From: Gemmatimonadales bacterium
GTDB lineage: Bacteria; Gemmatimonadota; Gemmatimonadetes; Gemmatimonadales; GWC2-71-9
NCBI GenBank assembly: GCA_041613315.1
Contig: JBFJHJ010000003.1
Coordinates: forward strand, 1-64,000
Length of the DNA: 64,000 bases
Direction of reading: 5' to 3'
In this document: in pieces, positions 42,901-45,900 of the stretch
Numbering within the stretch: position 1 is the stretch's first letter
Layout of the letters: every line of letters starts with the position of its first letter
Made by a program: the position numbers

Positions 42901-45900
42901 TCCTGCGACAATGGGGCTTCGACGCGGCACCCTATCACGCCGGCCTTCCCACAGGGGCGCGCCGGGCACTCCTCGCGAGATTTCTGAGCGGACGCATCAC
43001 GGTCATGGCGGCGACGAGCGCGTTCGGGATGGGGATCGACAAACCGGATGTGCGCCTCGTGGCTCACCTGGGGGTGCCGCAGAGGCCCGAGGCGTACTAC
43101 CAACAGGCCGGTAGAGCGGGCCGGGACGGCCTTGCCGCCCGATGTGTCCTGCTCTGGCTGCCCCGGGACCTGGAGCTGGGCGCCCGCTTGGCGCTGGGCC
43201 CGCGGGGCCGCGGCCCGAGGAAGACCCTCCAGGCAGCCCGAGCGGGCCTCGAGACGATGCGTCGCTACGCGACGACCGCCCGATGCCGCCGGCGGGTCCT
43301 GCTCGCGTACCTCGGCGAGCGACCGGATCGGTGCGCCGGCTGCGATCGCTGCTGCGGCTGGCCCCCATTGGTGTGACACAGGCCCGTCGCCCGGCTCGTC
43401 GCAGCGGCTCTTGGGACTGCTCGACCGCGGCGACAGGATCGCGGCCATCGTCGGGGCAGCCCATTTTGAGTTTGGGCGTGGTGTGGTGCCACCAAGATGT
43501 GTCAGCCACCTGTCCCATTTTGCGAACAAATGTGCCGGTTTCGGGTCGGAGGACAGGCCGGCCGTTTTGTCATGGTTGGTGTGATGTGCTGGTTTTACAA
43601 TGACTTACGTGAGATGGAACTTCCTGGCACGGAACTTCCTTATACGGTTGGCAAACAAGAAAAGTCTGCGGCGTTACTGAGCACCTTGCCGCCCGGCAAG
43701 TTCAAACTCGTCTGGAGGGGACGAGCGGGATCCCGCAAATGCCCGAGCTCAGTAGCGCCGCAGCTTTTTTGTCGCCATGCTGCAGCTCAGGGTCAATATT
43801 GGGGTCGACCGCGGAATCGGCAAGTCTGACCCGTTGCCACCACCTCCCCATCGATCCTGTCGTTTGCGGAACCGAGAGCCCACGCCTGATACTTAGGCGA
43901 TGACACCTCAGCGTCTCGCTCCTCTGAACGTTCCGTGAGCGCCCCTCAGGCGATTCCAGCCTTTCCGCAGCAGCTCGAGTGGGTGAACGTCAGCCGCCCG
44001 CTCACGATCGACGATCTCAAGGGCCGCATTGCCGTCCTCGACTTCTGGACGTACGGCTGAATCAATTGCCAGCACATGCTGCCGCAGTTGCGGCGGCTCG
44101 AGGAGGCGATCGGCGACGATGTCGTGGTGGTGGGTGTGCACGCCGGCAAGTTCATCGCCGAACGGGAGACGTCGCGGATCCGTCACGCCACGCGACGTCT
44201 CGGCGTCCGACACCCCGTGGTCAATGACCGGCAGTTCCGGATCTGGCGGGCCTACGGCGTGCAGGCGTGGCCCACGCTCGTGTTCGTGGCGCCCGACGGA
44301 AGCTACCTCGGATCGCACGCGGGCGAGGTTCCGGCGTCGGCGCTGATTCAGGCGGTGAGCGACGTGCGCGACGGCGTGCGGGACCAGCTCACCCGACCGC
44401 CGCTGCCGCTCGATCCTGAGCCGGCGGCCGGCGACGGGCTCCGCTATCCCGCGAAGATCGCGGCGCACGGTGGCCGGCTCTACGTGGCGGATACCGGCAA
44501 TGGTCGAGTTCTCGAGTGCGAGCCGTCTTCCGCGACGCTCGCGGTCCGCCGCGTGATCGGCGACGGGGTCTTCGAGGCGCCCCATGGGATGGCCATCGTC
44601 GCGGACCGGCTGTACGTGTCCGACCCGCCGGCACACCGTATCTTCGCCGCCGAGTTGGCCGACGGGTCCGCGGCACCCGCGGTGTCGGCCGTGGCGGGCA
44701 CGGGAGAGCAGGCTCGCGGCTGCCCGTCCGGCGCCGTCGCGGCCGCCAAGACCCCCCTCAGCTCGCCGTGGGACGTGGCCTCGCACGATCACACGCTCTA
44801 TATCGCGATGGCAGGAACCCACCAGGTGTGGGCCCTGGACCTCCGCACCGGAACGCTCGGACGGCACGCGGGGAGCGGAGCGGAGAGCATCGATGACGGG
44901 CCGCCGGCCGCGGCGACCTTTGCGCAGCCCTCGGGTCTCGCGGTGCACCAGGGATGGCTCTACGTCGCCGATGCCGAGTCCAGCGCCGTCCGCCGGGCCG
45001 GCCTCGCGGCCGACGGGACCGTCGAGACCCTCGTCGGGACGGGCCTGTTCGATTTCGGGGACCGGGACGGCACCGGAAACGTGGTCCGACTCCAACACGT
45101 GCTCGGTCTGGGCGTGTGGCGGAACGGGCTGGTGCTCGCCGACGCATACAACGACGCGCTCAAACTGCTCGACCCCACGCGCCGCAGCGTCCGGGCGCTG
45201 ACGCGCGGCCTCCATGAGCCCGGTGGCCTCGCCGTGGTGGGGGACGTCGCGTACGTGGCGGATACGAACGCCCATCGTGTGGTGGCGGTGGACCTCCAGG
45301 GAGGCGAGATGCGCGAGCTCACCCTGAACGCGTCATGATGGCGCGCTTCCCCGAGGGACCCCGCCCCCCTACCTTCCACACATGACCTCTTCGAGGGGGA
45401 CGCCGTGACGCCGCTGCGGAACGTGCTCAAGCGTCGGTGGCCTCTCGGTCTCGCTGCGCTGTGCGTGGCCACCGTACCCACCGGCCTCTACGCCCAGGCG
45501 GTCGTCTACCGGATTCCGGTGACCGGAACGATCGAGCTCGGCCTCGCCCCGTATATCGAGCGCGCGTTGCGGGACGCCGGCGCGTCGGGGGCGCGCGTCG
45601 CGATTCTCGATGTCAACACCCTGGGTGGGCGCGTGGATGCCGCCCTGCACATCGTGGACGCGATCGGGCGCACCGAGATCCCGGTGTACGCTTTCGTGGA
45701 CCCGCGGGCGATTTCCGCAGGGGCTTTGATCTCCATGGCGACCGATTCCGTGTTCATGACGCCGGACGCCCAGATCGGCGCCTCCACGGTCGTCACCGCG
45801 GAAGGCGTCAAGGTCTCGGAGAAGGCGCAGAGCGTGATGCGCGCACAGTTCCGGGCCCTCGCCGAGCGCCGCGGACTCGACCCGCGAATCGGCGAGGCGA

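Follow-up and report, generated by a model that had tools for sequence, protein, structure and literature searches.

We found that a gene of a Gemmatimonadales bacterium, encoding a thioredoxin-like domain fused to an NHL beta-propeller, is very probably a genuine selenoprotein gene, in which the UGA at 44058-44060 would be decoded as selenocysteine (Sec); this degree of confidence, which comes from sequence comparison, covers the decoding and not the chemistry of the product. The gene lies within the analysed stretch of 64,000 nucleotides (assembly GCA_041613315.1, contig JBFJHJ010000003.1, positions 1 to 64,000; hereafter, the window). Its protein is the bacterial counterpart of the thioredoxin-NHL core shared by NHLRC2 of humans and SOQ1 of plants. 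NHLRC2 is described as essential in human and mutated in FINCA disease, with its biochemical function open (excerpts of PMC6107167 and bioRxiv 10.1101/2024.11.01.621559). If the Sec reading is true, a codon that seemingly splits the gene as a stop puts selenium into the active site of a protein related to this disease protein and to SOQ1.

Results

Gene, reading frame and genomic context

The reading frame opens with GTG, and its read-through translation comprises 467 amino acids with the motif W38-T-Y-G-U42-I-N-C45 and no further stop before 45336-45338 (Table 1). A first-pass annotation of this genome had merged two called genes of 41 and 420 aa into one that is read through TGA; we recovered the same single 467-codon frame, and the ORF listing reproduced both pieces (43935..44060 and 44076..45338). 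The 420-aa piece is recorded in databases as an NHL-only protein (P0002), with NHL as its sole Pfam domain. Upstream, the frame is limited by a stop at 43887-43889, and there is no ATG, GTG or TTG before the GTG at 43935. The window's copy of the gene is intact: of the 65 columns with at least 95% conservation across 69 relatives, it keeps 64. The genome holds no second copy (paralogue). The GC content of the gene (0.70-0.74) equals that of its surroundings, and a foreign island was rejected on this ground. A promoter scan around the gene found no promoter-like site, and the one terminator-like site (43544-43563) is no more than is found in shuffled sequence.

Table 1. Positions of the gene and of its observed and predicted features in the window
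Feature	Position	Strand	Description or basis
Whole gene	43935..45338	+	GTG start, 467 codons, single in-frame TGA, own stop TGA 45336-45338
Thioredoxin-like (TlpA/ResA/DipZ-type) domain, residues ~8-147	43956..44375	+	Pfam Thioredoxin_8, model, 6gc1 alignment
UGA, predicted Sec codon (residue 42, opening the motif U-I-N-C)	44058..44060	+	relatives' alignment
Cys45 (TGC), putative resolving partner in the UxxC motif	44067..44069	+	invariant in alignment of relatives
420-aa ORF called by gene finders, false internal ATG start	44076..45338	+	ORF listing
Candidate bacterial SECIS hairpin	44078..44097	+	fits published bSECIS model; in TGA forms, missing in Cys forms
cis-Pro113 of the thioredoxin-like domain	44271-44273	+	alignment to 6gc1
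NHL-repeat beta-propeller, residues ~165-465	44427..45329	+	Pfam NHL 80.6 bits; Foldseek propellers 6g7w, 7djj

In the window, the neighbouring genes code for a helicase of the RecQ type and a membrane protein of the NfeD type. To survey the neighbourhood more widely, ORFs of 76 loci were clustered and 11 representatives were scanned against Pfam. None of the neighbours in common (alpha/beta hydrolase, M1 peptidase, unnamed ORFs) occurred in more than 20 loci, and most of these loci bear the label Gemmatimonadaceae. The pattern looks like synteny of kin, and a functional link drawn from the neighbours was rejected; no conserved neighbour gene pointing to a substrate was found among the 76 loci.

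Protein domains and fold

In the read-through protein, Pfam detected NHL (80.6 bits), Thioredoxin_8 (PF13905; 44.5 bits against a cut-off of 27, residues 30-123) and AhpC-TSA (PF00578; 33.5 bits against 26). No NCBIfam model scored above its cut-off: ResA reached 39.7 bits against 170, TlpA 22.4 against 230 and StoA 32.6 against 210, so the protein is not placed among the periplasmic TlpA/ResA/CcmG oxidoreductases. The only selenoprotein-related NCBIfam match, SelL_rel_redox, stayed at 16.2 bits, below its cut-off of 120, which agrees with the earlier statement that no selenoprotein model of this collection fits. In the alignment, the conserved core already begins at residue 8, and no frame extension is possible upstream of 43890; going only by this reading of the frame start, the protein would be cytoplasmic.

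The AlphaFold2 model (pLDDT 95.5, pTM 0.93) has a strand at residues 32-38, followed by a helix at 43-62 that starts directly after U42; the model thereby puts Sec at the N-terminal end of the first helix of the thioredoxin fold, facing the conserved cis-proline. Among relatives W112-P113-T114 is conserved, and W16, G30, D36 and F37, all within the N-terminal 41 residues, are family-invariant. The six-bladed NHL propeller is packed beside the thioredoxin-like domain, as in 6gc1 and 7djk (Foldseek, both domains). The original proposal holds up, with the TGA in the place of the first Cys of the CxxC motif in a thioredoxin domain of the TlpA/ResA type that is joined to an NHL propeller.

Sec and Cys forms among relatives

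A scan for related loci gave 77 loci, of which 75, carrying the motif W-T-x-[GCA]-[U/C]-I-N-C, were counted; the other two (L095, L096) are distant and lack the CxxC. The codon at the U/C position is TGA in 51 of the 75 loci, TGC in 23 and TGT in one. The TGA loci come from several phyla, and the flanking protein sequence is conserved on both sides of the codon. Read-through frames of the relatives contain no other stop, except in loci that are cut by contig ends or have likely frameshifts. It should be noted that nearly all relatives are metagenome bins. The first-pass annotation had reported 62 TGA and 18 TGC/TGT codons among 80 loci; the direction of this ratio stands, and the exact figures are replaced by 51 and 24 of 75.

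In an even sample of Chloroflexota, the TGA form is present in 63 of 82 gene-bearing genomes (63 of all 401 sampled), including two genomes of the first set, G015 and G029. The 20 TGA forms and the 19 Cys forms of a second sample, also from Chloroflexota, all have the respective codon at the same aligned site. In the window's own phylum, the gene occurs in 10 of 150 other genomes, none of them with a stop; it is absent from all 71 examined genomes of the window's own family, and the window's sequence lies on a long branch (0.91) in the tree. Thus, which form is commoner depends on the sample: the earlier claim that the Sec form prevails is true of the nearest relatives and of the Chloroflexota sample, and fails in the window's own phylum.

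The two forms also differ in architecture: a C-terminal domain was found in 0 of 48 complete TGA forms versus 9 of 22 Cys forms.

Sec machinery

The same genome encodes selA (521.9 bits, cut-off 267.9), selB (328.7 bits, cut-off 242.25) and selD (370.7 bits, over its cut-off), the last of which carries an in-frame TGA of its own. It also contains tRNA-Sec (77.2 bits, cut-off 47), which ARAGORN likewise calls as tRNA-SeC with anticodon tca. Among the relatives, selA exceeded its cut-off in 44 of 51 TGA-form genomes versus 11 of 24 Cys-form genomes. Six of the 51 TGA-form genomes have no selA match and one has only a partial match; because these genomes are incomplete bins, the missing selA is weak counter-evidence.

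A candidate SECIS hairpin downstream of the TGA

The published bacterial SECIS (bSECIS) criteria (PMC13188914) call for 3-9 nt in the loop, at least 4 bp in the stem, a G within the loop's first two positions, a distance of 16-37 nt from the UGA and a minimum free energy (MFE) of at most -7.5 kcal/mol. The hairpin of the window agrees with this consensus, with a stem of 8 bp (5' arm 44078-44085, 3' arm 44090-44097), the loop AGUU (44086-44089) and 25 nt between UGA and loop. We compared TGA forms with Cys forms, and a hairpin within these limits follows 49 of 52 TGA forms versus 2 of 24 Cys forms, with mean MFEs of -12.9 and -5.6 kcal/mol, respectively; in the second sample, the counts are 20 of 20 versus 0 of 19.

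Counted from the T of TGA, the eight pairs occupy columns 21-28 and 33-40. Across 51 different TGA sequences, pairing is seen in 85.5% of 408 cells, versus 37-59% when the 3' arm is slid and 47.9% in the Cys forms; for the seven core pairs, 334 of 357 cells are paired. The hairpin first described at this place thus holds up in its conservation, and its size is corrected from seven to eight pairs in the window. Synonymous sites in the stem are frozen in the TGA forms. The stem Leu codon (nt 31-33) is TTG in 42 of 42 cases, whereas TTG accounts for 6.8% of the 1,696 Leu codons in the rest of these genes; the Pro codon is CCG in 49 of 50 (background 52.6%), and the Arg codon is CGG in 47 of 48 (background 32.6%). 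At the same stem codons, the Cys forms have TTG in 1 of 24 and CCG in 9 of 22.

The excess over chance appears only in the comparison across sequences and not in the window's fold alone: the 73-nt fold of the window is unremarkable (z -1.63), and 11 of 200 shuffles fold equally well. RNAalifold, which had been said to give no consensus pair, here gave four of the hairpin's pairs, at -0.53 kcal/mol. Pair 24-37 varies among TGA sequences (C-G 28, U-G 9, U-A 8, G-C 5, other 1). Two counts of covariation, in an alignment where most stem pairs barely vary and the sequences are kin, do not exceed chance, with three pairs changed on both sides (reached by 139 of 500 shuffles) and nine further pair types (reached by 206 of 500). 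Rfam assigned no family to the window at gathering score; at loose thresholds, 44000-44200 gave only two chance-level sRNA matches on the minus strand, and the hairpin was unmatched.

Comparison with NHLRC2, SOQ1 and DipZ

Human NHLRC2 has the same arrangement of a thioredoxin-like domain and a six-bladed NHL propeller (Foldseek to 6gc1: TM 0.92, rmsd 2.2, 35% identity), and phmmer aligned 6gc1 to residues 6-455 (E 7.9e-73). The human motif C-C-I-N-C, residues 89-93 (PMC6107167, excerpt), aligns with G-U-I-N-C of the window; the human protein thus has Cys where the window has Sec, and Cys, the first of CCINC, where the window has Gly. Counted from the 6gc1 alignment, U42 corresponds to Cys-90 of the human protein (second Cys in CCINC), C45 to Cys-93 and P113 to cis-Pro-163, while D98 corresponds to Asp-148, the residue mutated in FINCA disease. 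The window's protein differs further in being bacterial, in its predicted recoding via a SECIS within the coding sequence, and in ending after the propeller, at 467 aa, whereas NHLRC2 continues into a beta-stranded domain at the C-terminus. Therefore, of the NHLRC2 architecture ascribed to the protein by the first-pass annotation, the thioredoxin-NHL core is confirmed and the C-terminal domain is absent. The mammalian architecture is reported in only few bacterial homologues (PMC6107167, excerpt).

The lumenal region of Arabidopsis SOQ1 resembles the window's protein in its thioredoxin-like and NHL core (7djk, TM 0.93, rmsd 1.9; phmmer to 7djj, E 8.9e-73) and has a CCINC-type motif. Excerpts of bioRxiv 10.1101/2024.11.01.621559 describe a redox-active Cys pair in its thioredoxin-like domain, methionine sulfoxide reductase activity of the lumenal domains, and further a HAD domain, a membrane helix and, at the C-terminus, a domain that takes electrons from the thioredoxin-like domain. 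The window's protein has none of these three additional parts, and the full architecture of neither the animal nor the plant protein is present. None of the 48 complete TGA forms has the C-terminal domain on which SOQ1 depends.

Among stand-alone thioredoxin-like structures, the nearest in sequence is the C-terminal domain of Mycobacterium tuberculosis DipZ (2hyx, 5cyy; E 2e-17, residues 16-156). In DipZ, the fusion partners are a membrane domain of the CcdA type and a carbohydrate-binding-like domain, and there is no NHL propeller among them. Its motif, S-C-I-N-C (PMC6107167, excerpt), has Cys, not Sec.

Relation to known UxxC selenoproteins

Listed UxxC classes include the 'Prx-like thiol:disulfide oxidoreductase' (PF00578), the 'Thiol:disulfide interchange protein' (PF13098) and the 'Thiol-disulfide isomerase-like' class (PF13905/cd02966) (PMC13188914, PMC9312934). 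Like these, the window's protein has UxxC in a TlpA/Prx-like thioredoxin fold and matches PF00578 and PF13905, and the Pfam label alone would file it among the known thioredoxin-fold classes. When compared by description only, it falls into the Prx-like class, with a PF00578 match above cut-off (33.5 versus 26 bits) and the motif U-I-N-C. It is not a member of the Sargasso 'thiol-disulfide isomerase-like' class as represented in the part of that report considered here, where two sequences read DW-U-TWC and PW-U-GAC, not U-I-N-C.

The entries of the known UxxC classes name no NHL propeller, NHLRC2 or SOQ1; 'NHL' and 'propeller' have no occurrence in the review PMC13188914, and 'UINC' has none in the examined supplements of the Sargasso and GOS papers. 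Our search of the selenoprotein, NHLRC2 and SOQ1 literature found no paper describing a Sec form of this family. The predicted Sec-containing thioredoxin-NHL family therefore looks new as a named selenoprotein, with the qualification that the broad Prx-like/TlpA-like UxxC classes may hold members of it. The recoding mechanism itself is ordinary and not new.

Discussion

Several other explanations of the TGA were considered. It could be a true stop, in which case the locus would hold either one gene that is split or in decay or two genes (41 and 420 aa), with the NHL part alone being made. Gene callers give exactly these two pieces, truncated NHL-only proteins of 405-420 aa are recorded (P0002, P0003, P0039, P0080), and an ATG is found 15 nt past the TGA. 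A true stop is nevertheless hardly credible at a codon where TGA is shared by 51 multi-phylum loci, with the protein conserved on both sides, and by 63 genomes of the Chloroflexota sample; moreover, the ATG at 44076 is not conserved (relatives have Val, Ile, Glu or Met), the N-terminal 41 residues retain the four family-invariant positions, and the hairpin and the frozen synonymous sites would be left without a role. The same recurrence, together with the hairpin that accompanies TGA (49 of 52; 20 of 20 in the second sample), leaves a practically negligible chance of a sequencing or assembly error, even though a single base separates TGA from TGC and TGT.

Read-through alone does not name the residue, and near-cognate insertion of Trp or Cys, or a variant genetic code, could produce the same frame; Cys would be chemically acceptable at the site. 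We regard such decoding without Sec as scarcely believable. The gene's own stop is TGA, and therefore there is no general reassignment of TGA in the genome; the site aligns with Cys, not with Trp; the genome has the full Sec machinery; and a SECIS-type hairpin with G-U in its loop follows the TGA forms, compared to 2 of 24 and 0 of 19 Cys forms. A different proposal adds to Sec decoding and does not replace it: the UGA would also serve as a selenium-sensing switch, yielding the full enzyme in the presence of selenium and, in its absence, termination with a possible downstream start of an NHL-only product. Sec codons have this property in general, and the ATG at 44076 provides a downstream start in the window; that start, however, is not conserved, and the additional role is very unlikely.

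For decoding as Sec, the recoding route is presumably the ordinary SelB/SECIS mechanism of bacteria, in which the hairpin inside the coding sequence would be bound by SelB with Sec-tRNA(Sec) while the ribosome is on the UGA, by analogy with E. coli fdhF, and selenium would be inserted at residue 42. The predicted product is a two-domain redox protein, consisting of a thioredoxin-like domain and a six-bladed NHL propeller, with the active site U42-I-N-C45. Its selenolate would be the attacking nucleophile, the oxidised state would be a selenenylsulfide with Cys45, and the client may be held by the propeller in the cleft between the domains. We consider the following three reactions: (i) reduction of a specific client protein at a disulfide or a sulfenic acid, to which we give an even chance; (ii) reduction of methionine sulfoxide, as reported for SOQ1, which is doubtful; (iii) reduction of peroxide, which is unlikely.

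Outside catalytic redox sites, Sec hardly ever takes the place of Cys. Human Cys-90 and Cys-93 are marked by the Sec forms as a working redox pair, for which these forms offer a direct test. The structure paper of 2018 gave arguments against thiol-disulfide exchange by NHLRC2, and human NHLRC2 was inactive in an insulin reduction assay (PMC6107167, excerpt). A joint reading, which we put forward tentatively, is that, throughout the NHLRC2/SOQ1 family, the equivalent of human Cys-90 might act as the catalytic redox nucleophile, and that the first Cys of CCINC might be dispensable, because Gly takes its place in 48 of 52 TGA forms. In that case NHLRC2 would be a genuine oxidoreductase even though the insulin assay showed no activity, and the two-domain Sec forms would be self-sufficient reductases, with the selenol attacking a propeller-held client, e.g., oxidised Met or Cys.

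The gene is miscalled not only in the window but also in the relatives examined, where NHL-only proteins of 405-420 aa stand in the databases, and no NCBIfam model would rescue it. Since 63 of the 401 genomes in the Chloroflexota sample carry the TGA form, many annotations are affected.

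Gene, reading frame and fold

The first-pass annotation had joined two called genes into a single selenoprotein gene, and a mechanical list of open reading frames holds both pieces as claimed. Translation through the in-frame TGA gives 467 residues with the motif W38-T-Y-G-U42-I-N-C45; the longer piece has its own entry in the protein collection (P0002), with NHL as its only domain.

Coordinates of the thioredoxin-NHL gene and adjoining features (window positions)
Feature	Position	Strand	Remarks
RecQ-type gene	42126-43376		
Gap between RecQ-type and thioredoxin-NHL genes	43377-43934		558 nt
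Terminator-like site	43544-43563		within the gap
Upstream limit of frame	43887-43889	+	stop codon
Whole gene	43935-45338	+	GTG is the first start; ends at TGA 45336-45338; single in-frame TGA
First ORF piece	43935-44060		41 aa
In-frame TGA	44058-44060	+	U42
Second ORF piece	44076-45338		420 aa
Hairpin	44078-44085 / 44090-44097	+	8 pairs, one U-G; loop AGUU

In Pfam, the read-through protein matched NHL repeats (80.6 bits) and, at residues 30-123, Thioredoxin_8 (44.5 bits), with further matches to AhpC-TSA (33.5) and Thioredoxin (25.5). No NCBIfam model exceeded its curated cut-off on this protein (ResA, 39.7 vs. 170), and the sole selenoprotein-related match, SelL_rel_redox, reached 16.2 against a cut-off of 120. 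Of the 65 columns with at least 95% conservation among 69 relatives, the window copy retains 64; it looks functional despite its long branch. The GC content of the gap preceding the gene is 0.61-0.64, compared to approximately 0.70, and Rfam has no match there.

The best solved relatives by sequence are human NHLRC2 (PDB 6gc1, E = 7.9e-73, residues 6-455) and the lumenal region of Arabidopsis SOQ1 (PDB 7djj, E = 8.9e-73). A model predicted from 51 aligned sequences (pLDDT 95.5, pTM 0.93) resembles both over the two domains, with TM 0.92 and rmsd 2.2 for 6gc1, and TM 0.93 and rmsd 1.9 for SOQ1 7djk. It places U42 between strand 32-38 and helix 43-62, a junction that classically holds the attacking residue of thioredoxin-fold proteins. 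In the numbering of PMC6107167, which puts CCINC of human NHLRC2 at residues 89-93 and its cis-proline at position 163, the alignment equates U42 with Cys-90, C45 with Cys-93, D98 with Asp-148 and P113 with Pro-163.

TGA and cysteine codons in relatives

Scanning one genome per species with six search patterns, we found 77 related loci; one of the patterns had Cys at the Sec site, so that the scan was without tilt towards TGA. The motif W-T-x-[G/C/A]-[U/C]-I-N-C is present in 75 of the 77, and its Sec-site codon is TGA in 51, TGC in 23 and TGT in one (TGA in 49/73 without L025 and L065, TGA loci from genomes flagged as unpublished). The distant loci L095 and L096 (30% identity) form a branch without CxxC, with W-S-A-S-S-A-H-C and W-S-L-T-D-V-H-S replacing the redox motif. 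Judged by record titles, TGA forms occur in Gemmatimonadota, Chloroflexota, Rokubacteria, Actinomycetota (Coriobacteriia, Thermoleophilia) and one bin labelled Eubacteriales. In 46 of the 48 TGA loci that are complete, read-through of the single TGA leaves the frame open for 403-494 residues past the Sec codon; in the other two, L093 and L094, it breaks early while the protein match continues. The breaks in these two and in L071 and L087, 137-200 residues past the U/C codon with the match running on, are probably assembly frameshifts.

An independent second sample comprised 400 further genomes drawn evenly from the phylum of locus G015, identified as Chloroflexota by its record title (Anaerolineae) (matches with E up to 1e-40). 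The gene was detected in 82 of 401 genomes, 63 with a single TGA within the matched region and 19 with none (60/79 have TGA when three TGA genomes flagged as unpublished are left out). We examined the sequences of 20 TGA places and of all 19 matches without a stop, excluding flagged genomes. At all 20 places, the TGA encodes the U of W-T-x-x-U-I-N-C, and the hairpin downstream of it falls within the bacterial SECIS limits given below; such a hairpin is found in 0/19 Cys forms. One genome, G445, has two TGA-form copies with identical scores approximately 5.3 kb apart in opposite orientation (C157:31316-32584, minus strand; 37885-39153, plus strand), which would be explained by an inverted duplication or by an artefact of assembly.

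Hairpin downstream of the TGA

The coding alignment downstream of the TGA is gapless, and therefore its columns are directly comparable. Across 51 distinct TGA sequences, pairing holds in 85.5% of 408 cells (334/357 in the inner seven pairs), compared to 37.3-58.8% with the 3' arm shifted by 1-3 columns. None of 500 shuffles matched the observed pairing, the double changes (16 vs. 6.0) or the covariation score; two other covariation measures (changes on both sides; further pair types) were not above shuffles. Pair 24-37, which couples position 3 of a Leu codon with position 1 of the Glu/Lys/Arg/Gln codon five codons on, is C-G in 28 TGA forms, U-G in nine, U-A in eight, G-C in five and another combination in one. 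In the same columns of the Cys forms (n = 24), 47.9% of cells are paired, no better than in shuffles (181/500).

We took bacterial SECIS limits from the review PMC13188914 (section 5; legend of Fig. 2): a loop of 3-9 nt, a stem of at least 4 bp, G in loop position 1 or 2, a spacing of 16-37 nt and MFE of at most -7.5 kcal/mol. Hairpins within all these limits occur in 49/52 TGA forms vs. 2/24 Cys forms (mean MFE -12.9 vs. -5.6 kcal/mol), and the sole cause of failure in the three remaining TGA forms is a bulge interrupting the stem. The loop is AGUU in 42 of the 52 TGA forms, CGUGUC in six, UGU in two, and GUG and CGUGUU in one each.

The strongest single argument for selection on the RNA, beyond the peptide L-P-Q-L-R-E-L, comes from synonymous sites. 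The stem Leu codon (nt 31-33) is TTG in 42/42 cases, against 6.8% of the 1,696 Leu codons in the rest of these genes; the stem Pro codon is CCG in 49/50 (background 52.6%), and the stem Arg codon is CGG in 47/48 (background 32.6%). The Cys forms have TTG in 1/24 and CCG in 9/22 at the same codons. It should be noted that the window's fold alone is unremarkable (z = -1.63; 11/200 shuffles fold equally well), that RNAalifold predicted just four of the hairpin pairs (-0.53 kcal/mol), and that no Rfam family matches the hairpin.

The Cys form L121 (G467:C11:15436-16869; W-T-L-C-C-I-N-C) has a 7-bp hairpin in SECIS register with the loop AACU, whereas the TGA form L115, which shares the W-T-L-C motif, has the loop AGUU. 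The hairpin of L121 may be left over from a recent replacement of Sec by Cys.

Selenocysteine machinery

The window's genome (52 contigs, 82.9% complete) encodes selB (328.7 bits, cut-off 242.25), selA (521.9, cut-off 267.9), selD (370.7, cut-off 125; one internal TGA) and tRNA-Sec (77.2, cut-off 47; tRNA-SeC with anticodon tca in ARAGORN). The selD gene, outside the window (C2:62857-63789, locus L009), has its TGA in G-A-G-U-A-C-K, with a hairpin downstream whose loop is GUCUU, and is thus a second selenoprotein gene of this genome. Among genomes with TGA forms, selA is over the cut-off in 44/51 (42/49 without two unpublished genomes), partial in one more and unmatched in six; among genomes with Cys forms, it is over the cut-off in 11/24, and split or partial in three more. 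As these genomes are bins, failure to find selA carries little weight.

From the sequence evidence we infer that the window gene truly encodes a selenoprotein and has been miscalled, and that its recoding follows the ordinary bacterial mechanism.

History and spread

Seventy rows went into a quick maximum-likelihood tree, with the U/C column set to C in every row and the short rows L032, L071, L087, L090, L093 and L094 dropped. One starred clade of 46 rows unites 43 TGA forms and three Cys forms (L076, L080, L092). The U/C label requires at least five changes on the tree, two of them forced by starred branches (shuffled mean 19.0; 0/500 as low); because the tree is unrooted, Sec gains and losses are indistinguishable.

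The window's protein falls among the Gemmatimonadota rows on a long end branch (0.91), with a best identity of 50%. The gene was detected in 10/150 other genomes of the phylum, none with a stop, and in 0/71 genomes of the window's own family, and is therefore patchy there; selA occurs in 118/150 genomes of the phylum (117/149 minus one unpublished genome). The GC content of the gene is local. This scarcity, the local GC and the long branch could be due either to an old transfer or to repeated loss. The earlier statement that Sec forms outnumber Cys forms thus depends on the sample: it holds for the related loci (51/75) and the Chloroflexota genomes bearing the gene (63/82), but not for the window's phylum (0/10). 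The best 120 database proteins (four truncated, NHL-only; 116 with thioredoxin-type domains) are no measure of the Sec share, since truncated calls lose score.

Relation to known selenoproteins and function

The window protein joins the thioredoxin-fold UxxC selenoproteins as a new member. The table of the 2026 review PMC13188914 has broad classes of this kind, and a term search of its available text gives no hit for 'NHL' or 'propeller'; published UxxC classes may already count members under a generic name. Two Sargasso 'thiol-disulfide isomerase-like' sequences that were examined have motifs different from U-I-N-C, and 'UINC' occurs 0 times in the available, possibly incomplete, copies of the Sargasso and GOS paper supplements. 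Our literature search, including accessible parts of PMC9312934, PMC1088965, PMC2398784, PMC1794560 and PMC5029168, found no description of a Sec form of NHLRC2/SOQ1. The interest lies in the spread of the Sec form and in its implications for the active site of these two proteins.

Gene neighbours give no hint on the substrate, as is also reported for seven bacterial genomes in PMC6107167. According to that paper and bioRxiv 10.1101/2024.11.01.621559, human NHLRC2 is inactive in the insulin assay; the latter describes the lumenal domains of SOQ1 as reducing methionine sulfoxide on the lipocalin LCNP, with the Trx-like pair handing electrons to the C-terminal domain. The C-terminal domain, important in SOQ1, is found in 0/48 complete TGA forms vs. 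9/22 Cys forms. We propose that the Sec forms may be client-specific reductases, in which the selenol would be the nucleophile and the propeller would provide a docking surface. The residue preceding Sec is Gly in 48/52 TGA forms of the first set, and Cys in 19/20 and Ala in 1/20 of the Chloroflexota set; the Cys that opens the animal CCINC is therefore not needed beside Sec.
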